Shown here one piece after another: positions 2,745 to 20,695 of a stretch of 22,591 bases of DNA. Positions within the stretch are counted from its first letter, which is position 1; each line of letters opens with the position of its first letter. Below the pieces are notes generated by a model. The model was given only the letters and a program-made list of their open reading frames with translations, had not been told where the DNA came from and did not search any database. Position numbers and translations under genes: made by a program. Origin of the DNA: Arcobacteraceae bacterium (GTDB taxonomy: Bacteria > Campylobacterota > Campylobacteria > Campylobacterales > Arcobacteraceae); the NCBI GenBank assembly GCA_048268245.1, contig JBLWVX010000037.1, forward strand, positions 1-22,591, read 5' to 3'.

Positions 2745-2769
2745 AAAAAGAGGTTTTAAACCTCTTTTT
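2745..2769 (-). terminator. Intrinsic terminator of the tsoY-like gene
   Basis: AAAAAGAGGTTT-T-AAACCTCTTTTT hairpin directly at the stop codon. Confidence 0.7.
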
Positions 2770-3929
2770 TAGAATTCAAACTTTGTTTTTAGTTTGAAGA
2801 AATAAATGATTGTTTTAATTTGAATATAAATAAATGGAAGCATCAATAAAAAGTATGCTATAGAGTATTTTGCAATAACTGTATTAAAAGTTAGACCAAA
2901 ATTTATAAAAAACATACCAAATACAAAAAATGCAACACCTGGACAAATAAGTGCAAAAGATACAGGTGATTTATCCTCTCCATTTACGTATTTATCAAAG
3001 TATCCAATCTCTTTCATTACTTTGTATCCTAAAAGTCCAAAGATTACTTGAAGTGATACAATTGTTGCAGTTAAAGTAAATAATGACGATTTAGCAAGTG
3101 TTGCTTCAAAGTTATGGTGTAAACCAAAAGTAACTCTAATGGCAGTAATTCCTAAAAGCGTTAAAATTGGTAAGATAATCCATAAAGAAGGACTAGCTTC
3201 AATTGAAACACCATGTTCAAACATATTTTTAAATCCCATTGTAAGTTTAATAATAAGTAGTAAAATACTAACAGAAGCAAAAAATATAGCTGCAAAAATA
3301 CCAATAGCATTTACTGTGATATTGTGACTCATAGCTCCTGGTGCTGCAAAACCTACAGCTATCATAGCAAAGGCAAAGATTGAAATCATTTGAGAAAGGT
3401 TATTGTTTTTTGTAAAGTCAAAATCTCCTTTTATCAAAAGTCTTGAAAAGTAGTTCATAAATATTTTAAGACCAAAATACCCAGCAACTACAAACCCAAG
3501 AAGTGCAAATGGGAACATATATTCAACTATACTCCATAAATTTGGAACAAAAACAGCTCCTAAAACAAAACATACATTAATAGTCATAGTATATGTTAAT
3601 GGCATTGTCATTAAAGTTATTTCAGAATTTGAATTTACTAACTCTTTATATTTATTTGTATTTTTAAATAGATTAAATTGTTTAGTATTCCAAATTAGTA
3701 GTTTAAAGTGAAAATATGCAAAAACTAGTATAAATACAAGTGAAAAAGCTATCACAAAAGATAGCCATGTCCCTTCAAGTAATTTAGGCATAATAAAATC
3801 AAAGGTTGCCATAGGTACACCTTCATGTGGTACTAGAAACATTAAATACATAAAAAATGATACAGATAATCCTCCTGCTCCTAGTGCAGATAAAAAACAC
3901 ATTGGTGTGAATTTTTCTCTTAGTTTCAT
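2769..3929 (-). CDS. tsoY: TsoY-family (seleno)protein, polytopic membrane protein, Cys-containing form
   Basis: The N-terminal signature PMCFLSALGAGGLSVSFFMYLMFLVPH, plus NNLSQM and FALICPGVA motifs, match my recollection of the TsoY family. About 10 TM segments. Confidence 0.7.
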   Translation of the reverse strand: MKLREKFTPMCFLSALGAGGLSVSFFMYLMFLVPHEGVPMATFDFIMPKLLEGTWLSFVIAFSLVFILVFAYFHFKLLIWNTKQFNLFKNTNKYKELVNSNSEITLMTMPLTYTMTINVCFVLGAVFVPNLWSIVEYMFPFALLGFVVAGYFGLKIFMNYFSRLLIKGDFDFTKNNNLSQMISIFAFAMIAVGFAAPGAMSHNITVNAIGIFAAIFFASVSILLLIIKLTMGFKNMFEHGVSIEASPSLWIILPILTLLGITAIRVTFGLHHNFEATLAKSSLFTLTATIVSLQVIFGLLGYKVMKEIGYFDKYVNGEDKSPVSFALICPGVAFFVFGMFFINFGLTFNTVIAKYSIAYFLLMLPFIYIQIKTIIYFFKLKTKFEF

Positions 3930-5303: not shown

Positions 5304-5322
5304 TTTTTGTGGAAAAAAAGTC

Positions 5323-5350
5323 GAAAAGATAGTTTTTATACTATCTTTTC
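5323..5350 (-). terminator. Terminator of the mutase-ligase operon
   Basis: GAAAAGATAGT-TTTTAT-ACTATCTTTTC hairpin right after the ligase stop, followed by a T-run on the minus strand. Confidence 0.75.
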
Positions 5351-5351
5351 A

Positions 5352-6923
5352 TTATTTTGAAAGAATTTCGTTTTTTAATTCTTCTTTATTTATTTTATTT
5401 TTGTCGCTAGGAACTAGTGGGAGCGATTTTTTATAAATTATTTTTGAAGGTATCATATAAGAAGCTAGATGTTTTTTAAGTTCAAAACTTATCTCTTTAG
5501 GTGCTAGTTCACTTCTACTTGAATAAACCATAACTATTTCTTCTTCTATTTCTTCATTTGGAACAGAGAAGATTGCACATTGATCAATTTGAGGTAAATT
5601 ATTTTCAACTACTGATTCTATTTCATAAGGACTTACTCTAAATCCTCTTGTTTTTATCATATCATCATGTCTTGATACAAAGTAGAAGTAACCTTCTTCA
5701 TCTTTATAAACATAATCTCCTGTTGCTACAACTATCTCATCAGTTAATTGTCCCTCTAAATCTATTACATCTTTTAAAATTTGAATAGATTTAAATCTCT
5801 CTGCTGTTTCAACTGGTGCATTCCAGAAACCTTTGTAGATATATCCACCTCTATGAATTAACTCACCAATTTCTCTTGGTTTACACTCTTTACCTTCTTC
5901 ATTTATTACATAAAGTTCTACATCAGGTATTGCTTTACCAATTGAATCAGGTCTTATATGTATCTGAGATGGTTCAAGATAAGTTGATCTAAATGCTTCT
6001 GTTAATCCATGCATAGAGTAAAACTTAGCATCTGGGAAGTACTTATCTAAATCTTTAAGCATCTTATGCGTTACATTTCCACCTGATGATGTAAGTACTC
6101 TTACACTTGATAAAAGCTCAGCACTTGGAAGTCTATGTTCATCTTCATCAAACATATTTGCAATATTTACAGGCATTAAAGGAACTACTGTTACTTTATC
6201 ATTTATTAAGTGGTTGAAGAAATCTCCTGCAAGGATAAATCTATGAAGTGCTAAAGTTGCTCTTTTATATAGTGAGCAGAAAATTTGATTTAAACCGTAA
6301 TCAAGGTTAAAAATAAGTGTTCCTGAGATTACATCATCTTCTTTTAACTCTAAGTATTGAGATACTACTCTTGCACTATCGATTAGATTTCTATGAGATA
6401 TTACAATACCTTTTGGTTTTCCTGTAATTCCAAATGAGTAAGTAATAACTGCATTATCATGACCACTTATGTCATTATGAAATGGTTTATTATAGTATTT
6501 ATAAATTTCTTCAAATGAAGGAATATCTTTATGAGCTGTTTCATAAGATAAAATATGCCCATCAAATTTAATCTCTTCTATACTTTCAAGTTTCAACTTA
6601 TCAGTTATAATACATTTGATATCACAATCTTGTATGATATATTCAACCTGTTCAGGTTTTAATAGCTTTGTTAGTGGAACTAAAACATAATCAGTAGATA
6701 AAATAGCAAGTATTGCAATAACTTGATCTATTCCTTTGTTTGAATAAACACCAATTCTACTTCCCTTTGGTAGGTTTAACTCTTTTAAATAAAAAGCAAC
6801 TTGATTTGCTTTTTTTAATAAATCTTCATATGTAATACTTTTTTCATTGAATACTACAGCTGTTTTAGCTGGATGAGATACAGCTGAGTCTTCAAGTAAA
6901 GTTCTTATACAGTTAATAGACAT
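5352..6923 (-). CDS. AMP-forming adenylating enzyme (ANL superfamily), resembling the exosortase-A-associated acyl-CoA ligase family
   Basis: TGKPKGIVISHRN, LDYGLNQI, GLTEAFRSTYL…RPDSIGKAIP, GELIHRG…GFWNAPVETAERF, TGD, RHDDMIKTRGFRVSPYEIE and a C-terminal Lys motif. Confidence 0.88.
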   Translation of the reverse strand: MSINCIRTLLEDSAVSHPAKTAVVFNEKSITYEDLLKKANQVAFYLKELNLPKGSRIGVYSNKGIDQVIAILAILSTDYVLVPLTKLLKPEQVEYIIQDCDIKCIITDKLKLESIEEIKFDGHILSYETAHKDIPSFEEIYKYYNKPFHNDISGHDNAVITYSFGITGKPKGIVISHRNLIDSARVVSQYLELKEDDVISGTLIFNLDYGLNQIFCSLYKRATLALHRFILAGDFFNHLINDKVTVVPLMPVNIANMFDEDEHRLPSAELLSSVRVLTSSGGNVTHKMLKDLDKYFPDAKFYSMHGLTEAFRSTYLEPSQIHIRPDSIGKAIPDVELYVINEEGKECKPREIGELIHRGGYIYKGFWNAPVETAERFKSIQILKDVIDLEGQLTDEIVVATGDYVYKDEEGYFYFVSRHDDMIKTRGFRVSPYEIESVVENNLPQIDQCAIFSVPNEEIEEEIVMVYSSRSELAPKEISFELKKHLASYMIPSKIIYKKSLPLVPSDKNKINKEELKNEILSK

Positions 6924-6933
6924 GATGTTCCTT

Positions 6934-8133
6934 TTAAGATTTTACGCCAAGTGTCCAAATATCATAGTTATTATCCATAACTACATTTGGATTGTGCTCA
7001 GAGTTTAATATTTTTTGATAGAAAAATGATACAATATCTTCAATTTCTTCCGGCTTTAAAACTTTTGTTATTCCACCAGTAAATACGATAGAGTTTAAAA
7101 CTAAAAGCTTAATATTTACATACGAGTTTACATAAGTTGATACCTTACATAAAACTAAGAATATTGCTAATTGCATTAAAATAACTGTTGCTTTAGGACT
7201 TTGCTCTTCAAAAATATTTTCTGTAACTTTTAAGTGTGCAAGTAACTCATAAACAAACTCATTGTTTTTTGCAGCAAAGATTAGTGATTCTTTTGATTTG
7301 TAAACACCAAGTTTTTTAAATACAAGTCTGTCATATTCATTCTCAGTAACCATATTTTCATCTACTAAATCTTTTGAATAGTGAATATCAGTAGTCGCTC
7401 CACCAATATCTATTAGGATATATGGGTCTGCAACTGTAAACTTGCTTCCTATTTGAGGAAGAGTTTTGTTCACAATATATGGTGTTGAGTAGATTTGATT
7501 TGAAGTAATATCATATAAGTGTTTGATGTCTTCTTTACCCATAATATCAGCTTGATAAAGGTTTGTTAAGTACTCTTTCAAATGTTCTTCTTCAACATGA
7601 AGTTTATTTGTAATAATATTTGGTAAAACTTTTAGGTTCTTAATACTCTCACTTAAATATGGTGCATCCTTACTGCTTCCTACAAAAACAATATTTGAAT
7701 AATTTACATCATTTAAAAACTTAAATAATTTTTCATCAAACATACCACTTACAGAGTCAATTCCTCCAACAACTATAACAACATCAATTAATTCACTAGG
7801 AATTGATGTCTTTTCAATATCTTTATAAAGTACTGTATCAATAATATTAATTCCTGAATTAAAAGCAATATTTGTAGCATACTTTAGTGAAAAAGAGTTA
7901 GTAACCCCAATAATAAGTGTGCTTAAACCACCATTTGCAGAAGAACAAATAAATACATCTTCTTTTTCATAGTTATTGATTGTATCTCCACATTTATATG
8001 TTAAGTCATCATAGATGTCTTTATTAAAATCTCTAAAGTGTTGCTCAACACCTTTTGAAGTACTTACTTTAAAATAAGTACTTCCAACATCGATTAAAAG
8101 TTTATCATTTGTATTTTGGTTTACTTGGCTCAT
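6934..8133 (-). CDS. glmL: Glutamate mutase accessory/reactivating protein GlmL (MutL), actin-like ATPase fold
   Basis: LLIDVGSTYFK, CSSANGGL and ILIDIGGATTDIHY motifs; adjacent to the mutase S and E genes. Confidence 0.88.
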   Translation of the reverse strand: MSQVNQNTNDKLLIDVGSTYFKVSTSKGVEQHFRDFNKDIYDDLTYKCGDTINNYEKEDVFICSSANGGLSTLIIGVTNSFSLKYATNIAFNSGINIIDTVLYKDIEKTSIPSELIDVVIVVGGIDSVSGMFDEKLFKFLNDVNYSNIVFVGSSKDAPYLSESIKNLKVLPNIITNKLHVEEEHLKEYLTNLYQADIMGKEDIKHLYDITSNQIYSTPYIVNKTLPQIGSKFTVADPYILIDIGGATTDIHYSKDLVDENMVTENEYDRLVFKKLGVYKSKESLIFAAKNNEFVYELLAHLKVTENIFEEQSPKATVILMQLAIFLVLCKVSTYVNSYVNIKLLVLNSIVFTGGITKVLKPEEIEDIVSFFYQKILNSEHNPNVVMDNNYDIWTLGVKS

Positions 8134-9494
8134 TGCATAATTCCTATATCATGGATAATATCATTTACTATTGATGTAGTATCTTTTTTTAAGTCACATT
8201 GAGCTTTTTCATACTCAAAACACTTATCTGGAATTGGAACTTTTCCTCTTTTGATGATTCTAATATTTTTGTTTTTATCTCTAATTGTAATCATCTCATT
8301 GTTGTTGATAATATGAGGAGAGAATGGCACATCAATTGTTCCATTTTTAATAGAGTTAAACACTTTTCTCCATAAAGTATCAGCAGGGTCATTAAATACA
8401 GCTTCCATAATAGCCATAACTTCTGCTGTTAAGTTTTCTTCCTCTTCTTGATCAACTACATTTGGAAGACCATTTAAAATTCTAAGAAGATATTGAGTAT
8501 TTGCTACTGTTTCAGCATTTGCTTCTTTTGTAGGAATACCTGAAGCTTCTTGATTTGTTTTTGTAATAAGTTTATTAGCTCCAACCATAGCAGCAATAAC
8601 TGTACTCATAGAGATAAGCTCAGAGGCATAGTTTGAATCCATAGGGAAAGCACCCATCCATTGGTGGTACACTAAGTGAATATCAGCATCACCACAGTTA
8701 ATCTCATTTGCATAATGCTTTGCTAGTTTTTTGATAACTGCACCCATTACAATATCTTGATTCATAGAACCAGTTTGAGAGAAAGAAACTGAGAAAGATT
8801 TTACTCCCTCTTCAAGTGATAGTAACATCTCTAATAATTGAATAACAATAGTAATACAAGGTGGAACTAATGTTGCTGTTAAAGGTCCAAATGATTCTCT
8901 ATTTATAGGTTCATTTAAAGTTGAGTATTGTGCACAAACTCTCTCTACATATTTCCAGTATAAAAAGGCCTTATCAAGTGGGAAGTTTTTAGAATAAGGA
9001 AGTAAATATGTAATAGGACCTCCCTCAATCTCAAAAATACCAGATGCAATTGCAGTTTCTATTAGAAGTCTTGCATCAGGAGTACCATGTCTTAATGAAA
9101 TTGGTTTATTAAAATGTGTCATCATTTTTCTAGATGTTCTATATCCATGAGTTACTAATGGATAACCATTTAACATATCAACTTCATTTTCTTCTGAAAG
9201 TCTTAACATCTTTTTTGCTGTTGCATAGTCATTAAGTCTTGTATTTGAATCAACTGTACATGGAAGTACATCAACATTTGCTTTATCAAAAAACTCATAT
9301 AAGGCAAACATTTTGTCATAAGTAGGGAATCCACCTCTTGGTTGAACAAGCATTTTATCTTTTGTTTTAAAGTTATGTGAGATAAAAAGATCTTTTGAAG
9401 CATTTTTTACAAAATCTTCAACTTCTGCAAAATCAAAGTTATCTACATGCTCATTACTTAATATAATGTTTCTCTCTTCTTGTAATAAACTCAT
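8130..9494 (-). CDS. glmE: Glutamate (methylaspartate) mutase large catalytic subunit E
   Basis: QPRGG, DSNTRLN, LNGYPLV, LRHGTPDARLL, EGGPITYLLPY, INRESFGPLTATLVPP, HQWMGAFP, EASGIPTKEAN and GTIDVPFSP motifs. Confidence 0.92.
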   Translation of the reverse strand: MSLLQEERNIILSNEHVDNFDFAEVEDFVKNASKDLFISHNFKTKDKMLVQPRGGFPTYDKMFALYEFFDKANVDVLPCTVDSNTRLNDYATAKKMLRLSEENEVDMLNGYPLVTHGYRTSRKMMTHFNKPISLRHGTPDARLLIETAIASGIFEIEGGPITYLLPYSKNFPLDKAFLYWKYVERVCAQYSTLNEPINRESFGPLTATLVPPCITIVIQLLEMLLSLEEGVKSFSVSFSQTGSMNQDIVMGAVIKKLAKHYANEINCGDADIHLVYHQWMGAFPMDSNYASELISMSTVIAAMVGANKLITKTNQEASGIPTKEANAETVANTQYLLRILNGLPNVVDQEEEENLTAEVMAIMEAVFNDPADTLWRKVFNSIKNGTIDVPFSPHIINNNEMITIRDKNKNIRIIKRGKVPIPDKCFEYEKAQCDLKKDTTSIVNDIIHDIGIMQ

Positions 9495-9907
9495 TAGTTT
9501 TTTCTACCTTCCATGAATTTCTCTAATTCATCTAAACCAGTATTTAAATCAACTTGGTGGAATACTAAATCAAAACCATAGTTTTTAAATCTTGGAACAA
9601 TATCTTCTGCACTACCTGTTCCAACTACTAAGTTACCACCAATCATAAATACTACATCATCTAAAAGATTTCCATATTTTGATTTTAAAATCTTAAGTTC
9701 TCTTGCCCAACCCTCAGCTTCACCGTTTAATGATGAGATTAATAATATATCTGCATTTGTTTCAATTACTGCATCAATAAACTCTTCTAAGTAAGTGTTA
9801 ACTCCAAGGTTAAATACCTCAAAGCCTCTTGCTTGAAGTGAAAGGTCAATTAGTCTGTTTGCTACTACGTGGATGTCGTTTCCAACTACGCCAGTTACTA
9901 CTTTCAT
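9494..9907 (-). CDS. glmS: Glutamate (methylaspartate) mutase cobalamin-binding small subunit S
   Basis: B12-binding DIHVVAN (variant of DxHxxG), ISSLNG and IGGNLVVG motifs; 137 aa; TAATG overlap with the E subunit gene. Confidence 0.92.
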   Translation of the reverse strand: MKVVTGVVGNDIHVVANRLIDLSLQARGFEVFNLGVNTYLEEFIDAVIETNADILLISSLNGEAEGWARELKILKSKYGNLLDDVVFMIGGNLVVGTGSAEDIVPRFKNYGFDLVFHQVDLNTGLDELEKFMEGRKN

Positions 9908-10202
9908 ATTTTCGTACCTAATTTTTTTATAGTTTTTATTTCTTTAAAAAGGCAAATATTTTATCTAAAAAGTGGTTATATTTTTATTAATTTATATATA
10001 AATAGACTTGATAAATAAGTGGCTTTTTTATTTCTAAAAAGTTTCACATTAATTATAAATAATAGTTTATTTATAGTGCTTTTATTCTTTTTTAAGTTTT
10101 AAATTATTAAAATAATAACACAAATTATGATTAAAATTGATTATTAGAAGATGTAAAAACTTTACTTTATTTGATTAAATTAGATTAGAAGGAAGGTGTA
10201 TT

Positions 10203-11630
10203 ATGAAACTAAAAATTAATTTAATGCTATTAGTACTTTTAAATACTATTTTAAATGCAGGTTTCTTTGATAAAGATGTTGAATTTTTAACTAATGAAAA
10301 GCAATTGGAACGAAAATTCCCCACTAATAAAGAAGTAGTATTATCTTATAATAATGTACTTAAAAACTTAAAAACATCAGTTGTAAATATATCTACTAAA
10401 AAAAGAGTGAAATTAGGTTCTTATGCTAATCCTTTTTTTGGAGATCCTTTTTTTGACAACTTTTTTAGAGGCTTTGATGGCCCTAATTTATTTTTCCCTA
10501 AAGAAAGAGTTCAAAGTTCTCTTGGTTCAGGTGTTATTGTAACTAAAGATGGATATATTATCACAAATCATCATGTTATAGATGGTGCAGATGAGATAAA
10601 AGTATCAATCCAAGAAAGCAAAAAAGAGTATGATGCAAAAGTTATTGGAAGTGACCCTAAAAGTGATTTAGCTGTAATAAAAATAAATGCACAAAACTTA
10701 AATGCAATTAAATTTTATGATTCTGATAAAGTAAAAATTGGAGATATTGTATTTGCTTTAGGTAATCCTTTTGGTATAGGACAAACAATAACTCAAGGAA
10801 TGGTTTCTGCAACAGGAAGATCTTCTGTAGGGATAGTTGAATATGAGGATTTTATACAAACAGATGCTCCCATAAATCCAGGTAACTCAGGAGGGGCTTT
10901 AGTTAACTCAGCTGGTTATCTTATTGGAATTAATAGTGCAATAGTAAGTAAAAATGGTGGTAACGTAGGTATTGGTTTTGCTATTCCTTCTAATATGGTG
11001 AAAAATATCACAAAAGCTATAATAAATGATGGAGAATTTACAAGGGCATATTTAGGAGTTAGAATTAGTGATATAAGTGAAGATTTAATAAGCTTTTATG
11101 GTAGAAAAAATGGAGCAATTGTTACAAGTGTAGAAAGTGGAACTGCTGCTGATAAGTTAGGATTAAAAAGAGGGGATTTAATAGTAAGTGTTAATGATAA
11201 AGAAGTTAAATCTTCTTCTTCACTTAGAAATATTATTGGAACTATGACACCTAAAACACAAGTTACTATTAAATATATAAGAGATAAAAAACTTAAAGAA
11301 GGAACTGTTAGATTAAAAAGTATAAAAGATAGAACTTTTAATTCAACAGGATATGGCTATGAGTATAAAGGAATGAAAATAGAAACTTTAACAAGTCAAC
11401 TAAAAAGACAGTTAGGTATTTCTCAAAATATTAAAGGTGTTTATGTTAATAAAGTAGAGGAAAAAAGTAATTCTTATGAAGCAGGTATTTTAGCAGGTGA
11501 TATTATCATACAAGTAGAGAATAAAGAAGTAAAGGATATTGAAAGTTTTAAAGAAATGGCATTAAAAGGCTTTGGTAAAAAAAGATTTTATATTTATAGA
11601 AGAGGAGGAATAATAGTGACTGTTTTATAA
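10203..11630 (+). CDS. htrA: Periplasmic serine endoprotease HtrA/DegP/DegQ (Do family), two PDZ domains
   Basis: Signal peptide; GSGVIV, TNHHV, DLAVIK and QTDAPINPGNSGGAL; two PDZ-like repeats (GLKRGDLI, GILAGDII). Confidence 0.95.
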   Translation: MKLKINLMLLVLLNTILNAGFFDKDVEFLTNEKQLERKFPTNKEVVLSYNNVLKNLKTSVVNISTKKRVKLGSYANPFFGDPFFDNFFRGFDGPNLFFPKERVQSSLGSGVIVTKDGYIITNHHVIDGADEIKVSIQESKKEYDAKVIGSDPKSDLAVIKINAQNLNAIKFYDSDKVKIGDIVFALGNPFGIGQTITQGMVSATGRSSVGIVEYEDFIQTDAPINPGNSGGALVNSAGYLIGINSAIVSKNGGNVGIGFAIPSNMVKNITKAIINDGEFTRAYLGVRISDISEDLISFYGRKNGAIVTSVESGTAADKLGLKRGDLIVSVNDKEVKSSSSLRNIIGTMTPKTQVTIKYIRDKKLKEGTVRLKSIKDRTFNSTGYGYEYKGMKIETLTSQLKRQLGISQNIKGVYVNKVEEKSNSYEAGILAGDIIIQVENKEVKDIESFKEMALKGFGKKRFYIYRRGGIIVTVL

Positions 11631-11644
11631 AACGGTCACTATTA
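11611..11644 (+). terminator. 34-bp near-perfect palindrome over the htrA stop codon (terminator or mRNA-stabilising hairpin)
   Basis: TAATAGTGACTGTTTTA / TAAAACGGTCACTATTA, with a single G:U pair. Confidence 0.55.
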
Positions 11645-11656
11645 GAAGAGTTAAAG

Positions 11657-12520
11657 GTGAAAGAGTTTATTTCAATATTTCAAAAAAATAAAATTGAAAT
11701 TTTAGAAAAGTTATTAAGCAAAATAAAACTTGCTAATTTAAAAGATTTAAAAAGTGAACAGCTTTATGAAGCCTTTTTATATTTTGATGCCTTAGAAACT
11801 ATATATGCTGTAGATGAAAATTTTATTCAATTATCGCCAATTTTTAATAGAAATGATAAAAATGGAGAGTTTATAGTCAATAAAATAAAAAATACACTAA
11901 AGTCAAATACTAATTTAAAGAATAAAGAGTATTTTATAAGCTCACCTTACGTGTCAGATAAAACTAATAAATATATCGTTACTTTTGTTAAAAAAGTTGA
12001 AGATAGACTTATTGCCATGGATTTTGACTTTTTTAAATTATTAAATGAGTATAGTAATACTGATATAAAAACTAAACTTTTTGTAAATATAGTACAAGTT
12101 GTTTATGCAATTATTGGAATTAGTTTAACATTATTTTCTTTGATATTGATTTTTTATTCTATTTATGATTTCGCAAGTCATATATTTGGAATAGCTGATA
12201 ATATATTTCAATCTATTTTCAAATCTACAATTGGTTTAACTTTAGGGTTGGCAATTTTTGATTTAGCCAAAAATCTACTAGATCATGAGGTGATTTTTAA
12301 AAATCATACAAATGAAGCACATGGAAGTAATTCTTTATTGATAAAATTTTTAATTTCTATAATTATTGCATTAGCAATTGAATCTTTGATGATGGTATTT
12401 AAAATAGCGATAAGTGATTATAAAGATATTTTATATGCTATATATTTATTATTTGGGATAGGATTTTTACTTATTTCTATGAGCCAATATAATAAGTATT
12501 TGAATAAAAAGAATAATTGA
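11657..12520 (+). CDS. Membrane protein with N-terminal PDC/Cache-like sensor region and four C-terminal TM helices
   Basis: GTG start. YFISSPYVS…YIVTFV is Cache-like. The C-terminal TM block includes LTLGLAIFDLAK and SIIIALAIESLM. Confidence 0.7.
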   Translation: MKEFISIFQKNKIEILEKLLSKIKLANLKDLKSEQLYEAFLYFDALETIYAVDENFIQLSPIFNRNDKNGEFIVNKIKNTLKSNTNLKNKEYFISSPYVSDKTNKYIVTFVKKVEDRLIAMDFDFFKLLNEYSNTDIKTKLFVNIVQVVYAIIGISLTLFSLILIFYSIYDFASHIFGIADNIFQSIFKSTIGLTLGLAIFDLAKNLLDHEVIFKNHTNEAHGSNSLLIKFLISIIIALAIESLMMVFKIAISDYKDILYAIYLLFGIGFLLISMSQYNKYLNKKNN

Positions 12521-12588
12521 AAATTAAATTTTAATTTTATCTGTAGTTTTTTTGACTATTATTCCTGCAAACAAATAAAAGGTATATT

Positions 12589-13476
12589 TTGAATACTTTA
12601 CATTTAAAAGCGCATATTTTTGTAATGATAGCAACTATTTTAGTCGCAGGTTCTTTTATCGTTACTCAAAAACTTGCAGGATTAATTAGTCCTTTTTCTC
12701 TTATTTTATTAAGGTTCTTTGCATCTGCAATAATTTTAGTACCATTGATCTTTATAAAAAAAAGATATAGAGATAAGATACTATCTACTATGCCAAGAGC
12801 TATGGTAATTAGTTTTTTTTATGCTGGGTATTTTGTTTTGATGTTTGTTGCTTTAGAGACAACAACAGCGTTAAATACAGGGGCTTTGTATACTTTAGTA
12901 CCTTTAGTTACAGCTATATTTTGTATTTTTATTTTTAAAGACAAAATTACTTTATTTCAATGGATTGTATATCTAATAGGAATAGTAGGAACTTTAGGAG
13001 TTGTATTTAAAGCTGATATTTCTTTGTTTTTATCTTTGAGTTTAAATAATGGAGACTTGATATATTTAGTTAGTATTTTATTTATGACTTTTTACTCTAT
13101 TACTATGAAAACTTTATATAAACAAGATGATCCAATTTTATTAGTTTTTTGTACTTTACTTGGAGGTGCATTATGGATGGCTATAATTTTAGTATTTATA
13201 AATGAACCTTTAAACTGGGGATTAGTAAAAGATGAAATGATTTTTTATATGGCTTATTTGGTTATAGCAACTACAATTATTACTTTATATTTATATCAAA
13301 AAGCTACTATTATATTAGGTCCTAAAAGTGTTATGTCTTATATTTATTTGACACCTGCAATTATTGCTATTTTTGTGTATTTTGTAGATGGAGTTACTCT
13401 TTCTTTCCCTGTAATAATAGCAATTGCTATTTCTGTGATAGCAACATTAATTTTACAATTTAAAATAAAGAATTGA
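12589..13476 (+). CDS. DMT superfamily / EamA-family transporter
   Basis: TTG start with AAGG RBS; about 10 TM segments in two EamA repeats (LLRFFASA, ALETTTALNTGALYTLVPLVT, LGPKSVMSYIYLTP). Confidence 0.88.
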   Translation: MNTLHLKAHIFVMIATILVAGSFIVTQKLAGLISPFSLILLRFFASAIILVPLIFIKKRYRDKILSTMPRAMVISFFYAGYFVLMFVALETTTALNTGALYTLVPLVTAIFCIFIFKDKITLFQWIVYLIGIVGTLGVVFKADISLFLSLSLNNGDLIYLVSILFMTFYSITMKTLYKQDDPILLVFCTLLGGALWMAIILVFINEPLNWGLVKDEMIFYMAYLVIATTIITLYLYQKATIILGPKSVMSYIYLTPAIIAIFVYFVDGVTLSFPVIIAIAISVIATLILQFKIKN

Positions 13477-13485
13477 GTAGATTAA

Positions 13486-13518
13486 AAAACAAAGAGTTTA
13501 AGAAACACTCTTTGTTTT
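13486..13518. terminator. Bidirectional terminator between the convergent EamA and DsbA-like genes
   Basis: AAAACAAAGAGT-N9-ACTCTTTGTTTT. Confidence 0.75.
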
Positions 13519-13524
13519 AAAATA

Positions 13525-14166
13525 TTAAAGTTCTGAGTTAATTAACTCAATTAATTGCTCTAGTCCAAAATCTTTTAAAGGTTTTGAGTTTACAAAAAAT
13601 GATGGAGTTTTATTTGCTCCTAAAGTTTTTGCATCGGCTAAGTCTTGTTTGATTATTTCATCAAGTTTAGGATTTTTTACAAACTCCTTTGCTTTAGTCA
13701 TATCAAGAAGACCTGATTTATCTGCTATATTTTCAACTATATCATATTGAGCAACATGATTATTTGTCCAATACTTTTGAGTCACAAATAAAAGTTCTAA
13801 AAGCTCTTTAAATTTACCTTGATCTTTAGCAGCTTCTAATAGTTTTACAACTTTGTCTGAACCTTTATGAAAAGGTGCATATCTATATACTATTTTGATA
13901 TTGTCTTCATTTTGTTTTTTCATTTCTTTCACATAAGGATGAAATAGTGCACAAGTTCCACAAGCAGGGTCAAAGAATTCTACAATTTCAACTTTAGCGT
14001 CTTTTTTACCATCTATATAAGAATAAGGTCTTACTAAAGAAGAGTTATTATTTTGAACTTTTTCAAGCTCTTTTTGGTTTTGTAAATTTTTATAAACATA
14101 CCCTGAAACAAAAAATATTGCTAATAAAGCAACAACTAAAATAATTACAACTTTTTTATTTTGCAT
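13525..14166 (-). CDS. DsbA-like thioredoxin-fold thiol:disulfide oxidoreductase, membrane anchored
   Basis: N-terminal TM anchor; IVEFFDPACGTC CxxC motif; cis-Pro loop KTPSFFVN. Confidence 0.88.
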   Translation of the reverse strand: MQNKKVVIILVVALLAIFFVSGYVYKNLQNQKELEKVQNNNSSLVRPYSYIDGKKDAKVEIVEFFDPACGTCALFHPYVKEMKKQNEDNIKIVYRYAPFHKGSDKVVKLLEAAKDQGKFKELLELLFVTQKYWTNNHVAQYDIVENIADKSGLLDMTKAKEFVKNPKLDEIIKQDLADAKTLGANKTPSFFVNSKPLKDFGLEQLIELINSEL

Positions 14167-14222
14167 TTTTTACCTTTTTTAAACTTTGGGTGAAATACTA
14201 CCATATCAGAGTTAACAAAAAA

Positions 14223-15200
14223 TTAAGGTAGTTGAGATATTGCTTTTATTTTTCCCCTTAAATTTCTATTTACTCTATTTAGTGAACTTTGAATTATACT
14301 TAAACTTTCATTGTCGAAACTGTTTTGTTTTGCTTCAAGATATAAATCTTGAGCAGTTTTAAGATTTTCAAATCTTTCATAAATCAAACCAAGATTATAT
14401 AAGACTTCCCAACTTTTATAGTTTAATTCTTCGTTTAGTTTTTCAAGCTCTTTTTTTGCAATAGTATAGTTTGAATTTTCTATTAATTCTAAAATATCAT
14501 CAAATTTGTTTTCTTGCTGTTCATTTAATTCTAAACTTTTTATTTCATCTATAACTTCAACAGTATAGTAGTTGTAGTGTGGAGATATATCTTGTAAAAA
14601 ATTTATTGCAATATCTTTTGCTAGGTTTGAGTTTATAGTATTTTTGTTTCTATGAAAGTCTGAATAGTAAGGGTATGTTTTATGTCTATAGCACTCATCT
14701 TCAAATTTTGTTTTTGTATATATTTTTGAAAATAGAATTTCATTTGAGCTACTTTTTATTACATCTATTTTTGTTTTTACTTTATAATCTCTTCTTTCAC
14801 ATGGAATAAATTTTTTAACATACTCTATACAAGTTCTTTTTTTTGTTTTTTTATTAACTTCATAAGTAATACATCTTTTTCTATTGAATTCTTCTTCATA
14901 ATAGATGTGATAGTTTAGCGAGGATTCTAAAACTTCTCCTGTGATAATAGCATCTGTATCAAAGCTATTTGTTTTAAGTCTAAATAGTTTTTTATTTTTT
15001 ATAAAAGCAGATGATAGCTTCGCCTCTATTGTTGCAGTTTGATTTATACTGTCATTGAAAAATCTATCAACAAAAACTTTATGGATTTTTTCATCTTTTA
15101 TTTTAGAGGGATGAAGTGATTTTACAGTGATTTTTGTAGCACAGCCACTAAAAATTAAAATGCTTAAAGCTAGCAATATTATTTTTACAAGATTACTCAT
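14223..15200 (-). CDS. Putative lipoprotein with C-terminal TPR-like helices
   Basis: Lipobox FSGC; C-terminal VLYNLGLIYERFENLKTAQDLYLEA is TPR-like; four additional Cys residues. Confidence 0.75.
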   Translation of the reverse strand: MSNLVKIILLALSILIFSGCATKITVKSLHPSKIKDEKIHKVFVDRFFNDSINQTATIEAKLSSAFIKNKKLFRLKTNSFDTDAIITGEVLESSLNYHIYYEEEFNRKRCITYEVNKKTKKRTCIEYVKKFIPCERRDYKVKTKIDVIKSSSNEILFSKIYTKTKFEDECYRHKTYPYYSDFHRNKNTINSNLAKDIAINFLQDISPHYNYYTVEVIDEIKSLELNEQQENKFDDILELIENSNYTIAKKELEKLNEELNYKSWEVLYNLGLIYERFENLKTAQDLYLEAKQNSFDNESLSIIQSSLNRVNRNLRGKIKAISQLP

Positions 15201-15328: not shown

Positions 15329-15808
15329 ATGGGATTTTTTACAGCAGATTTATGTGATGAACACAGTGAGAAAACAGAGGTTTTAGGACCAAACTTCAAG
15401 TCATATGGGGGGAGTAAAAAATTCAGAGGTACAGCTATTACTTTTAAACTAGATAAAAACAACAAAGATTTAGCACAGTTTTTAAAAGAGAATAATGGTG
15501 AAGGAAAAGTAGTAGTTGTAGATGTTGAAGAAAAATACTTTGCAGTTGTTGGTGATAATCTAATGAGATTTGCTGATGATAACAACTTTGAAGGACTTAT
15601 TGTAAATGGTTATGTAAGAGATACTGTTACAACTAAAGACTTTCAAACAGGACTTTTTGCAAAGGGTACTTGTCCTAGAAAATATATACCAGTTCAAGAT
15701 GCACAAATGAATGTCGCTGTTACAATTGATGGAGTAACTATCAATGAAGGTGACTACATTTATGCTGACCATGATGGTGTAGTAGTTTCAAAAGAGAGCT
15801 TAGTTTAA
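15329..15808 (+). CDS. rraA: RraA-family protein (RNase E regulator / HMG aldolase-oxaloacetate decarboxylase fold)
   Basis: TADLCD, FKSYGG, VVGDNL, NGYVRD and GDYIYADHDGVVV motifs; 159 aa. Confidence 0.88.
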   Translation: MGFFTADLCDEHSEKTEVLGPNFKSYGGSKKFRGTAITFKLDKNNKDLAQFLKENNGEGKVVVVDVEEKYFAVVGDNLMRFADDNNFEGLIVNGYVRDTVTTKDFQTGLFAKGTCPRKYIPVQDAQMNVAVTIDGVTINEGDYIYADHDGVVVSKESLV

Positions 15809-16371
15809 TGTATCTTTTTGGTTTTGGTTCACTTATAAATTTAAACAGTGCTCAAAAATCTTTTGAGAGAGAGCTTAGTTATTCTGACTTAATTCCTGTA
15901 ACTATAAAAGGTTATAAAAAAGTTTGGAATAGTATTGAGCATATACAGTTTGATGGCGTTGATATAAATGGAGTATTTTTAAATCTTCAAAAAGATGAAA
16001 ATACTCAAACAAGTGGAGTTGTTGTAAAAATAACACCTCAAGAGTTTGAGGTTTTAAAGCTAAGAGAGAAAAACTACTCACAAGTTACTATAAAAGCTTG
16101 TGATGTAATAGGAGCTGAACTTGATGAAGATGTTGTAGCTTTTATGACAACAAATGAAGAAAAAATAGCAAAAATAGGGGATGAAAACTGTTTTATTCCT
16201 GCAAAGTATATAGATATACTTACAAATGCTTTTGAAAACTATGATGCAAGTTTTGTAGAACAGTTTAAAAAAGAGTGTTTAGAGGATTTACCTTTTGAAC
16301 TAAAGCTGGGAACTTATAGCTTTAGTGATCCAACGCAGCAAAAATTAGCAAAAGAAGGAATCAAAAAGTAA
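15808..16371 (+). CDS. Gamma-glutamylcyclotransferase (GGCT/ChaC-like) family protein
   Basis: N-terminal YLFGFGSLIN motif, GYKKVW, GVVVKI and LKLREKNY with the candidate catalytic Glu; TAATG overlap with rraA. Confidence 0.75.
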   Translation: MYLFGFGSLINLNSAQKSFERELSYSDLIPVTIKGYKKVWNSIEHIQFDGVDINGVFLNLQKDENTQTSGVVVKITPQEFEVLKLREKNYSQVTIKACDVIGAELDEDVVAFMTTNEEKIAKIGDENCFIPAKYIDILTNAFENYDASFVEQFKKECLEDLPFELKLGTYSFSDPTQQKLAKEGIKK

Positions 16372-18604: not shown

Positions 18605-20695
18605 ATGGATTATATAAGGAATACTATTGATTTAACCCAAGGTTCTATTGAAGAAAAAAGAGAAGAGATAAAAGAGTACTTTCTTCAAACTTATGAATTA
18701 GATGAAAAGTTGTTTGATTTACTAAAAGATGAGAAAAATATTTACGAACAACCAAATAGACTTAGACATCCATTGATTTTCTATTATGGACATACTGCTA
18801 CATTTTTTATAAATAAACTAGTACTTGCAAATATCTTACCAAATAGAGTAAATAAAGAGTATGAATCTATCTTTGCTATTGGTGTTGATGAGATGTCATG
18901 GGATGATTTAGAATCTAAACACTACACATGGCCAACACTTGAAGAAACAAAAGCATACAGAGATAAAGTAAAGCAAATAGTTTTAGACCTAATAGATACT
19001 ATTGAGTTTACAATGCCTATAAATTGGGAATCTCCTATGTGGATTATTTTGATGGGAATTGAACATGAAAATATTCATATAGAAACTTCATCTGTGCTTT
19101 TAAGAGAACTTAAAATCAAATATATGAGTGATGATGAACTTTTTGAGTATAAAAATGAAGAAAGCCATGACTATCCAACAAATGAGTTAGTTGAGGTAAA
19201 AGCTGGAGAAGTTGTACTTGAAAAAGACAGAGAAAACCCTATATATTATGGATGGGATAATGAGTTTTCATACCATAAAGCTAATATCAAAGACTTCAAA
19301 GCTTCAAAATATTTAGTATCAAATGGTGAGTTTTTAGAGTTTGTAAAAGAGGGTGGTTATAATAAACCTGATTTATTTACAGAAGAAGGAAAAGAGTGGT
19401 TAGACTTCTCACAAGCTAAACATCCTACTTTTTGGGTTAAAAAAGAAGGAAGATATTATCTTCGAGAAATAAACAGAGTAATACCTTTACCTTTAAACTA
19501 TCCAGTTGATGTAAATGTATATGAAGCAGAAGCTTTCTGTAAATACTTAAGTAATAAAAAAGGCTTTGAGGTAAGACTTCCAAGTGAAGATGAATACTAT
19601 AGACTTTATGATTATACAAATGCAGGGCAAAAAGAAGCAAATATAGGACTTAAACAGTTTAATCAATCTCCTGTAGATAAATATAAATTTGATGAGTTTT
19701 ATGATGTGAAGGGAAATGTATGGCAATGGAGTATAACTCCTACATATCCTTTTGATGATTTTAAAACACATCCTATTTATGATGATTTTACTACTCCTAC
19801 TTTTGATGATAGACATGCCCTTATGAAAGGTGGGTCTTTTATCTCTTTAGGAAATGAAACTCTAAAGAGTGCAAGATATGCTTTTAGAAAGCACTTCTTC
19901 CAACATGCAGGATTTAGATATGTACAATCTGATAATGAATACAGAACGAAACTAAATGATAATGTATATGAAACAGATGACTTAATATCTCAGTATTGTG
20001 AATTTCACTATGGAGATGAGAACTTTGGAGTTAAAAACTTCCCTAAAAACTCAGTAGATTTAATCAAGCCATATTTAGATGGTGTAGATACTAAAAAAGC
20101 CATGGATTTAGGATGTAGTGTAGGTAGAAGTACTTTTGAGCTAGCAAAAAGTTTTGATGAGGTTTTAGGTATTGACTTTAGTGCAAACTTTATCAATGTA
20201 GGTGTAAAACTTAAAAAGTACGATTCTCTTGTATTTAAAGTAAAAAATGAGGGTGAGCTTTTTGATGAAAAAAGCGTATCTTTAAAAGACTTTAATTTAG
20301 AAGATACAAAAGAAAGAGTTACATTTATGCAAGGTGACGCTTGTAATCTAAAAGATTTATATACAGGATATGATTTAATCTTCTGTTCAAACTTAATAGA
20401 TAGACTTTACTACCCTCAAAAGTTCTTAGATGATGTACCAAATAGAGTAAATCAAAACGGACTTTTAGTGCTACTTTCACCATATACATGGCTAGAAGAG
20501 TATACACCAAAGAAAAACTGGCTTGGTGGATATATCAAAGACAATAAAGAAGTAAAAACATTAGATACATTAAAAGAAAACTTAGAAGATAGATACGAAC
20601 TACTTGATACTATAGATGTTCCTTTTGTGATAAAAGAAACAAATAGAAAGTACCAACATACAGTATCTCAAATGAGTATCTGGAAAAAAAGATAG
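18605..20695 (+). CDS. ovoA: 5-histidylcysteine sulfoxide synthase / methyltransferase OvoA (ovothiol biosynthesis)
   Basis: LRHPLIFYYGHTA, GVDEMSWDD and iron-binding EHENIHIETSSVL; FGE-sulfatase-like YGWDNE, RLPSEDE, GNVWQW and RYAFRKHFFQHAGFRY; C-terminal SAM methyltransferase DLGCSVGR, QGDACNL, NLIDRL and SPYTWLEEYTP. Confidence 0.95.
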   Translation: MDYIRNTIDLTQGSIEEKREEIKEYFLQTYELDEKLFDLLKDEKNIYEQPNRLRHPLIFYYGHTATFFINKLVLANILPNRVNKEYESIFAIGVDEMSWDDLESKHYTWPTLEETKAYRDKVKQIVLDLIDTIEFTMPINWESPMWIILMGIEHENIHIETSSVLLRELKIKYMSDDELFEYKNEESHDYPTNELVEVKAGEVVLEKDRENPIYYGWDNEFSYHKANIKDFKASKYLVSNGEFLEFVKEGGYNKPDLFTEEGKEWLDFSQAKHPTFWVKKEGRYYLREINRVIPLPLNYPVDVNVYEAEAFCKYLSNKKGFEVRLPSEDEYYRLYDYTNAGQKEANIGLKQFNQSPVDKYKFDEFYDVKGNVWQWSITPTYPFDDFKTHPIYDDFTTPTFDDRHALMKGGSFISLGNETLKSARYAFRKHFFQHAGFRYVQSDNEYRTKLNDNVYETDDLISQYCEFHYGDENFGVKNFPKNSVDLIKPYLDGVDTKKAMDLGCSVGRSTFELAKSFDEVLGIDFSANFINVGVKLKKYDSLVFKVKNEGELFDEKSVSLKDFNLEDTKERVTFMQGDACNLKDLYTGYDLIFCSNLIDRLYYPQKFLDDVPNRVNQNGLLVLLSPYTWLEEYTPKKNWLGGYIKDNKEVKTLDTLKENLEDRYELLDTIDVPFVIKETNRKYQHTVSQMSIWKKR

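Follow-up and report, generated by a model that had tools for sequence, protein, structure and literature searches.

A conserved cassette of glutamate mutase and a VinN-like adenylating enzyme in marine bacteria: a candidate route of 3-methylaspartate activation

Introduction

Among the radical enzymes that depend on B12, glutamate mutase is a textbook case, known from amino-acid fermentation, from the haloarchaeal methylaspartate cycle and from a few actinomycete antibiotics. Here, we describe an operon of an Arcobacteraceae bacterium in which the genes of a glutamate mutase are followed by the gene of a stand-alone adenylating enzyme. The operon is located at positions 5,352 to 9,907 of a stretch of 22,591 nucleotides (nt), hereafter “the window”, i.e. 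positions 1 to 22,591 of the forward strand of contig JBLWVX010000037.1 (GenBank assembly GCA_048268245.1; the assembly as a whole is referred to as the source genome). The published sources, cited by their PubMed Central identifiers, are represented here by excerpts of the articles, and the statements drawn from them are limited to these excerpts.

The closest described system is found in the vicenistatin-type macrolactams, where the mutase VinH/VinI makes 3-methylaspartate, a VinN-type enzyme loads a stand-alone acyl carrier protein (ACP), and a decarboxylase acts next (excerpts of PMC10662134). The enzyme VinN binds (2S,3S)-3-methylaspartate in the β-amino-acid mode via residues D230, F231, S299, K330 and R331, with K330 and R331 holding the α-carboxylate, and its β13-β14 loop has one residue fewer than that of the adenylation (A) domains for α-amino acids; SlgN1, from the streptolydigin pathway (PDB IDs 4GR4 and 4GR5), is also a 3-methylaspartate-activating A domain (excerpts of PMC11253843).

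The locus that we describe follows the logic of VinH/VinI and VinN without the carrier and the assembly line, joined to an ATPase, L, and to an RraA-like enzyme. As in the vicenistatin starter pathway (VinH/VinI, VinN, the ACP VinL and the decarboxylase VinO), a mutase appears to feed a stand-alone adenylating enzyme; unlike in that pathway, the loci of the cassette have no conserved genes for a VinL-type ACP, a VinO-type decarboxylase, VinM/VinK or a polyketide synthase (PKS). The residue corresponding to K330 of VinN is a phenylalanine, the L ATPase and the RraA-like gene are additional, and the cassette is hosted by marine Campylobacterota and Gammaproteobacteria rather than by actinomycetes. 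The similarity to SlgN1, which adenylates the same amino acid as is proposed for the cassette enzyme, is much weaker; SlgN1 is reported to hold its substrate in the opposite orientation and has an MbtH-like domain (excerpts of PMC11253843), and the cassette enzyme has no such domain.

With the fermentative methylaspartate pathway of Clostridia and some Enterobacteriaceae, where GlmS, GlmE and MutL are joined by methylaspartate ammonia-lyase, mesaconase and citramalate lyase, the cassette shares the presence of S, E and an L-type helper in one operon, as well as the active site of E, but it differs in the gene order (S-E-L), in the shorter L protein (399 amino acids, aa) and in having the ligase as the next gene instead of methylaspartate ammonia-lyase; the enterobacterial methylaspartate cluster has CobA (excerpts of PMC4682846), whereas no adenosyltransferase is linked to the cassette. 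With the haloarchaeal methylaspartate cycle, it shares a mutase in a genome equipped for C5-dicarboxylate coenzyme A (CoA) ester chemistry, since the source genome encodes a mesaconyl-CoA hydratase and CitE-like lyases. In the haloarchaeal cycle, however, the lyase deaminates before the CoA activation (excerpts of PMC4682846), whereas here no such lyase has been found and the hydratase does not strictly co-occur with the mutase.

An initial annotation of the window, made from its sequence, had proposed an undescribed pathway of 3-methylaspartate activation. The novelty holds for a cassette that lacks a carrier and a PKS, but not for the activation chemistry as such, which is known from vicenistatin and from SlgN1 (excerpts of PMC10662134 and PMC11253843). 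In the open-access literature, we have found no description of a carrier-less mutase-ligase cassette in Gram-negative marine bacteria, and nothing on glutamate mutase in Arcobacter or on methylaspartate mutase in Sulfurimonas.

Results and discussion

Gene order of the operon and its conservation

The operon consists of four genes that are located on the minus strand and run in one direction, in the order S, E, L-like and AMP-ligase. There is an overlap of 1 nt between the genes of S and E and one of 4 nt between those of E and L, and a gap of 10 nt separates L from the ligase. The open reading frames (ORFs) of the window and the hairpin that follows the last gene confirm the operon as first annotated, with the ligase as one of its members. 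The features of the locus are the following:

9907..9494, minus strand: glmS-like cobalamin-binding subunit S (137 aa; PF02310, NF002612)
9494..8130, minus strand: glmE-like catalytic subunit E (454 aa; PF06368)
8133..6934, minus strand: GlmL/MutL-like ASKHA ATPase L (399 aa; PF13941, MutL)
6923..5352, minus strand: stand-alone VinN-like adenylating enzyme, the ligase (523 aa; PF00501 and PF13193)
5351..5322, minus strand: terminator-like hairpin (12-pair stem, 6-nt loop, T run), directly past the stop codon of the ligase
9908..10202, minus strand: intergenic region upstream of S, shared with a divergent htrA-like gene
15329..15808, plus strand: cassette-linked RraA-like protein (159 aa; PF03737, 120.6 bits)

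A scan for relatives of E, with one genome per species, has returned 440 stretches, and all the counts of loci given below refer to the best 80 of these 440, in which E is 80-98% identical to the protein of the window. The order and orientation S-E-L-ligase are kept in 71 of the 80 loci, while the remaining nine are cut off by the end of their contig, within E or L or shortly past one of them; since the same gene order is found wherever the contig extends far enough, the linkage between the ligase and the mutase is far beyond chance, and no locus has been seen in which it is lost. According to the names of the records, 26 of the loci are of Arcobacteraceae type, 16 belong to other Campylobacterota (Sulfurimonas, Sulfurovum), 37 to Gammaproteobacteria (including Colwellia, Amphritea, Halioglobus and Vibrio) and one to an alphaproteobacterial metagenome-assembled genome (MAG), i.e. 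the synteny holds over three bacterial classes.

The subunit E is present in 108 of the 151 Arcobacteraceae genomes that were sampled, over 18 of 22 genera; within genus g10, it occurs in 8 of 22 genomes. In a class-wide sample of 251 genomes, the ligase is found in 13: it occurs in 0 of 81 and 0 of 105 genomes of the two largest families sampled, and in six of ten genomes of another family of the class, with 59-65% identity. The cassette has spread by transfer among marine bacteria, and it is not peculiar to one lineage, as Campylobacterota, Gammaproteobacteria and one alphaproteobacterium share the cassette and E is common within the Arcobacteraceae.

The mutase subunits and their substrate

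Subunit S matches PF02310 (47.2 bits) and NF002612 (156.6 bits, above the cut-off of 110), and it matches the S chains of solved glutamate mutases with an E-value of 1e-21. In the alignment to a solved S chain, Asp11 and His13, in the loop that binds cobalamin, and the SSL and GGN stretches all match, while Ala16 takes the place of a glycine; the Asp-x-His loop that is looked for in base-off/His-on cobalamin binding is thus kept.

Subunit E belongs to the family PF06368 (Met_asp_mut_E, 385.3 bits) and matches the solved clostridial E chain 6h9e_B with an E-value of 9.4e-80. By manual count on this alignment, R53, R86, R135, E157, Y163 and Y167 of E correspond to Arg66, Arg100, Arg149, Glu171, Tyr177 and Tyr181 of 6h9e_B, which we take to be the residues that contact glutamate. 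All six are unchanged in 80 of 80 relatives, where 244 of the 454 positions of E are invariant. The motifs of the arginine claw and of the catalytic glutamate that the initial annotation had recognised are therefore present and conserved, and glutamate is, as judged from these residues, the best-supported substrate of the mutase. The names in public records, “methylaspartate mutase” and “glutamate mutase L”, are of the same kind.

The adenylating enzyme

The ligase matches PF00501 (214 bits) and PF13193, and the model for amino-acid adenylation, TIGR01733, scores 214 bits on it. Among the curated families, that of the exosortase A system-associated ligase, TIGR03098, scores best; it is matched from end to end (positions 2-515 of 517), but with a score of 445.4 bits that lies below the cut-off of 592.35. 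Members of TIGR03098 operate together with a dedicated ACP and a pyridoxal phosphate-dependent decarboxylase; no exosortase context has been seen in the window or in the loci. The nearest solved relatives of the full-length ligase are A domains of nonribosomal peptide synthetases (NRPSs), not fatty-acid ligases; the E-value is 4.8e-40 against VinN (3wvn_A) and 6.6e-24 against SlgN1 (4gr5_A).

In order to compare the substrate pockets, the segment of residues 190-345 of the ligase was searched against solved structures; a cut-off of 1e-8 gave nothing, so that a cut-off of 0.01 was used. VinN (3wv4, 3wv5 and 3wvn) comes first with an E-value of 7.5e-8, while the next solved protein has 1.2e-3. 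In the gap-free alignment to 3wv4_A, where the numbering of the chain is that of VinN plus 16, D208, Y209, S280, F311 and R312 of the ligase correspond to D230, F231, S299, K330 and R331 of VinN; the ligase thus keeps the equivalents of D230, S299 and R331, together with an aromatic residue at position 231. The β13-β14 loop is shortened as in VinN: the alignment is gapless against VinN, while a gap of one or two residues opens against two α-amino-acid A domains of LgrA.

All five residues are the same in 69 of the 70 rows of the ligase alignment. The odd 70th row, which deviates at nearly all the probed positions, is probably a second ligase that has been observed in the upstream flank of a Sulfurimonas MAG (locus L035), where a divergent AMP-ligase ORF of 562 aa is located on the minus strand, a few kb away, in the same BLAST cluster.

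The ligase family appears isolated, as judged from sequence comparison. In a library of representatives at 50% identity, one representative of 525 aa lies near the ligase (60% identity), and giant multi-domain NRPSs with 24-29% identity make up the remaining 149 of the 150 top rows, a search that is unable to show nearer single-domain relatives; in the ESM Atlas, the ligase falls together with AMP-binding clusters that have no functional name. The match to the pocket of VinN is the strongest new support for 3-methylaspartate as the compound that is activated, and we regard the enzyme as a probable 3-methylaspartate ligase.

The L protein

The L protein matches PF13941 with 89.2 bits (cut-off 27), over positions 2-317 of the 450 positions of the profile, and its nucleotide (phosphate)-binding ASKHA motifs are invariant in 27 orthologs. 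The AlphaFold model of L is of moderate confidence (mean predicted local distance difference test, pLDDT, 70.8; predicted template modelling score 0.50), and the folds that match it best are those of ASKHA kinases and of proteins of the ParM type, with E-values down to 2.7e-5 and low template modelling scores of 0.2-0.3.

The model of the complex of L with S scores 0.74 in three of three runs, while the best of three controls scores 0.18; the mark that this score exceeds is reached by 116 of 157 solved complexes versus 2 of 215 mismatched pairs. At least 100% of the contacts are shared between the runs, and the partner pLDDT is 80; in the modelled interface, residues 77-82, 123-128 and 174-178 of L face residues 41-51 and 78-81 of S. 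The sequence of L has no relative in the PDB at E<=1, so that this result is unlikely to reflect a remembered complex of the same kind. L is thus predicted to bind S, which would give a poorly understood protein a testable role. MutL is regarded as a reactivating chaperone (excerpts of PMC4682846); the modelled contact with S fits this view and leaves room for the loading of the cofactor, and L probably serves the mutase as a chaperone or in the handling of its cofactor.

Search for methylaspartate ammonia-lyase

The Pfam scan of 22 of the 23 ORFs of at least 80 aa that the window holds (three of them nested in longer ORFs) has returned zero methylaspartate ammonia-lyase domains. In the whole source genome, which is 99.28% complete, the model TIGR01502 of this lyase has given 0 candidates and 0 matches, in a search without a positive control, as 0 of 14 control genomes scored above the model cut-off. 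The lack of the lyase that had been noted for the operon and the window is thus seen in the genome-wide search as well.

Proposed mechanism and acceptor

The reading that we favour, and consider probable, is that S and E make 3-methylaspartate, that L services S, and that the ligase adenylates 3-methylaspartate in a VinN-like way for transfer of the acyl group to an acceptor encoded outside the cassette. The mutase S+E, with adenosylcobalamin, would convert L-glutamate to (2S,3S)-3-methylaspartate; the ASKHA ATPase L would dock on S, keeping it loaded or reactivated; and the ligase would adenylate 3-methylaspartate as a β-amino acid at its C4 carboxyl, in the manner of VinN, so that the ATP-driven step might pull the unfavourable equilibrium of the mutase forward. 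The substrates and the direction of the flow are what we infer from the residues and the gene order described above. The proposal of the initial annotation, i.e. that the operon makes and adenylates 3-methylaspartate for an external acceptor, gains support from the VinN-like pocket, from the synteny in three classes and from the lyase search.

The acyl group would pass to an acceptor outside the cassette, most likely a free thiol such as CoA. The one housekeeping ACP would rank second, and an amine or a reaction within the molecule third. The RraA-like metal enzyme, in gammaproteobacteria together with an aminotransferase of the AspC/TyrB type, may act on the same pool of compounds, probably in their 2-oxo-acid form.

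In such a pathway, the mutase is coupled to ATP-driven activation instead of a lyase. If this reading is true, a common B12-dependent metabolite or route of marine bacteria has previously been undescribed, and these bacteria would have a further reason for their need of cobalamin. All the proteins of the cassette are small and soluble.

A bolder form of the proposal, which we hold to be unlikely, is that the cassette makes a widespread 3-methylaspartate-derived metabolite through carrier-independent chemistry of the adenylating-enzyme (ANL) superfamily, and that in Campylobacterota, where the adenosyltransferase families searched for are missing, the binding of L to S also loads or adenosylates the cofactor, so that the cassette would form a module self-sufficient for B12. 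Possible products under carrier independence would be free 3-methylaspartyl-CoA, an amide, or a ring that is formed by attack of the β-amino group on the acyl-adenylate.

Observations that weigh against the proposed mechanism

Several observations speak against the favoured reading. The main reservation concerns the pocket of the ligase, where Lys330 of VinN, which holds the α-carboxylate, is replaced by Phe311, although its partner Arg331 is kept as R312. Subunit E falls narrowly below the cut-off of TIGR01503 (371.0 versus 390.1 bits), and L lies far below the cut-offs of the GlmL equivalogs (70.1 versus 475 for NF040745, and 52.4 versus 204 for TIGR01319). VinN-type enzymes load a dedicated ACP, but the clustering of the ORFs of the 80 loci reveals no conserved carrier and no conserved decarboxylase, condensation or PKS gene, and the source genome has a single match to the phosphopantetheine carrier (PP-binding) domain, in a frame of 80 aa on contig C2 that is presumably the housekeeping ACP. 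The lyase search lacks its positive control, and a simple line from the mutase to the ligase does not explain what the RraA-like protein and the aminotransferase do.

The supply of the cofactor is a further difficulty. The adenosyltransferase families PF01923, of the PduO type and presumably also covering the EutT type, and PF02572, of the CobA/BtuR type, have no match in the source genome, and among the 151 Arcobacteraceae genomes PF01923 is matched in two, both marginally, and PF02572 in none, yet 108 of them have E. Because the known adenosyltransferases are missing, the source of adenosylcobalamin is left without an explanation, and an adenosylcobalamin enzyme without a known adenosyltransferase across a whole bacterial family is a puzzle in itself; the open-access literature has yielded nothing on glutamate mutase and adenosyltransferase in Epsilonproteobacteria. 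A BtuR-type enzyme is present in four cassette-bearing gammaproteobacteria, and none is found in a complete Sulfurimonas chromosome. No protein of the methylmalonyl-CoA-mutase family occurs in any of the 151 genomes. The source genome has MetH, which indicates that cobalamin is taken up and used; either intact adenosylcobalamin is scavenged, or some as yet unrecognised protein supplies the adenosylation.

A lyase-free route through mesaconyl-CoA

The first alternative keeps 3-methylaspartate as the substrate of the ligase and turns the cassette into the entry of a catabolic or assimilatory route, where 3-methylaspartyl-C4-CoA would lose ammonia to give mesaconyl-CoA, which a hydratase and CitE-type lyases would carry to central metabolism; we consider this route rather improbable. 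β-Aminoacyl thioesters eliminate ammonia easily, and a suitable set of genes is present on contig C7 of the source genome: positions 6579-15072 of the stretch C7:12000-30000 (L107) encode a CitE/HpcH-like protein (376 aa), a fusion of an AMP-ligase with HpcH/CitE (839 aa), a mesaconyl-CoA hydratase that matches PF19315 with 89.7 bits, another CitE-like protein, a class I fumarase and a DUF5718 protein. This cluster has the appearance of a route for C5 dicarboxylates or (methyl)malyl-CoA, and its fumarase may have mesaconase activity, as class I fumarases can serve as mesaconases (excerpts of PMC4682846).

In favour of this route, 74 of the 108 Arcobacteraceae genomes with E have the hydratase. 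Against it, 34 do not, including near-complete ones of one or two contigs, and 23 of the 43 genomes without E do have it; E and the hydratase are therefore not coupled. Furthermore, no candidate for an aminoacyl-CoA ammonia-lyase is conserved beside the cassette. As an obligatory partner of the cassette, the C7 hydratase cluster is ruled out by the same table of 151 genomes (74 with both, 34 with E alone, 23 with the hydratase alone, 20 with neither).

The RraA-like protein, the aminotransferase and a route to 2-oxobutyrate

The operon had been described as a four-gene unit, and the four genes stand, but the conserved unit is larger, as it includes the RraA-like gene in 68 of the 80 loci (tblastn) and, in gammaproteobacteria, an aminotransferase gene. 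Among the 12 loci without the RraA-like gene, six have less than 1.8 kb upstream of S and six have a full flank. In most of the loci outside the Arcobacteraceae, and in a few within, the RraA-like gene is divergent from S and located within ~320 bp of it; in most Arcobacteraceae loci other genes lie between the two, the distance in the window being 5.4 kb.

The RraA-like protein of the window is 53-58% identical to the cassette-linked copies versus 27-34% to the housekeeping rraA, which is present separately in each of four cassette-bearing gammaproteobacteria. On these identities and a quick tree, we treat it as a cassette-specific paralog that is distinct from the housekeeping rraA. It is a full-length PF03737 member of the RraA/HMG-CHA aldolase family, barely above the cut-off of NF006875 (138.3 versus 136), and its Arg-Asp dyad is invariant in 64 rows of cassette-linked copies, where RraA of E. 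coli has Arg-Gln. The catalytic Arg and the adjacent metal-binding Asp have their roles assigned in excerpts of PMC5065237, and those homologs of RraA in which the catalytic motifs are present are regarded as class II pyruvate aldolases that also decarboxylate oxaloacetate (same source). Unlike RraA as a regulator of RNase E, the paralog occurs in a genome in which RNase E/G (PF10150) has no match, although three RraA-like paralogs are present; the neighbours of the other two (a methyltransferase, DUF2721, GGDEF, a Na+/H+ antiporter and UPF0047) are uninformative. The protein is probably an enzyme of the class II aldolase or oxaloacetate decarboxylase type, as far as its motifs tell. Nothing that pairs glutamate mutase with RraA has been found in the open-access literature. 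In Colwellia maritima (L047:6910-7387), the RraA-like copy beside an intact cassette consists of three tblastn pieces in different frames and is probably broken.

In 25 of the 37 loci of gammaproteobacteria, the gene of an aminotransferase of the AspC/TyrB type adjoins the RraA-like gene. Compared among five gammaproteobacterial genomes, this enzyme is 77-81% identical, where the other full-length paralogs are 37-52% identical and a split copy of Colwellia is 66-70% identical. The source genome has no homolog of it (tblastn, E<=1e-5). Together, the RraA-like protein and the aminotransferase suggest that a 2-oxo-acid form, i.e. 3-methyloxaloacetate and then 2-oxobutyrate, belongs to the chemistry of the cassette.

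The second alternative, which we judge unlikely, makes this the main flow: 3-methylaspartate would be transaminated to 3-methyloxaloacetate, which the RraA-like enzyme would decarboxylate to 2-oxobutyrate for isoleucine or propionyl-CoA, and the ligase would serve a side branch or another substrate. The cassette-specific paralog with its invariant dyad, the activity reported for such homologs (excerpts of PMC5065237), the lack of an RNase E/G for it to regulate and the dedicated aminotransferase all argue for this flow. It leaves the ligase, the gene most tightly tied to the mutase, unexplained, however, and neither the missing aminotransferase homolog of the source genome nor the RraA-like copy in pieces of Colwellia maritima agrees with it. 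In addition, the source genome has an IlvA-like threonine dehydratase (333.9 bits), an ordinary source of 2-oxobutyrate. The presence of this gene also rejects the cassette as a necessary replacement of threonine dehydratase in the making of isoleucine. The model of citramalate synthase, TIGR00977, scores 186.7 bits, below its cut-off.

It is very improbable, lastly, that the ligase is an ordinary fatty-acid or small-acid acyl-CoA synthetase that is co-transcribed for regulation only, or that the substrate of the mutase is not glutamate: the public names of the ligase (“AMP-binding protein”, “fatty acid CoA ligase”, “acyl-CoA synthetase”) and secondary matches to NCBIfam models of long-chain-fatty-acid ligases point that way, but the aspartate for the amino group is kept, the solved relatives and the TIGR01733 score are those of amino-acid adenylation, the linkage of the ligase is invariant in all the loci long enough to judge, and the glutamate-binding residues of E are invariant.

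Control region, expression and neighbouring genes

The scan of the window against Rfam has returned zero families, so that no known riboswitch precedes the mutase operon. In loci L020-L079, two motifs that resemble a promoter, ~40-130 bases upstream of S, are common to the gammaproteobacterial and the Sulfurimonas loci: a ATTCTAGCA-like box is followed, ~25 nt downstream, by an extended -10-like TTTTGnTATCAT, for example at ~7470-7575 of locus L034. As the pair is kept between these groups, the control region seems, from its sequence, to travel with the cassette. In the window, the sole element that is recognisable by eye upstream of S is -10-like.

RNA contigs of a seawater run (X9) and of an oyster metatranscriptome (X10) overlie parts of all four genes, and one contig of X9 spans the junction of S and E. 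The RNA runs are represented by contigs only, so that the uncovered parts of the operon are uninformative, and two further runs, X1 and X2, are classed as RNA by guess; the contigs of X9 and X10 give a weak hint of expression, with carry-over of DNA being possible.

Downstream of the cassette, at 2769-3929 on the minus strand, the window encodes a TsoY family (seleno)protein (NF047644, 503.8 bits); in Arcobacteraceae, its gene is kept at this side of the cassette, as are those of a small cytochrome c and of a GGDEF protein. On the other side, an ORF of the ChaC-like (gamma-glutamylcyclotransferase) family at 15808-16371 on the plus strand overlaps the stop codon of the RraA-like gene by one base, and homologs at that position (cluster c29) were seen in just a few loci of Arcobacter. 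At 18605-20695, also on the plus strand, a protein of 696 aa combines DinB_2, FGE-sulfatase and methyltransferase domains, an architecture that we take to be that of an ovothiol-type sulfoxide synthase; in many loci of Arcobacteraceae (cluster c10), this protein is conserved close to the RraA-like gene.

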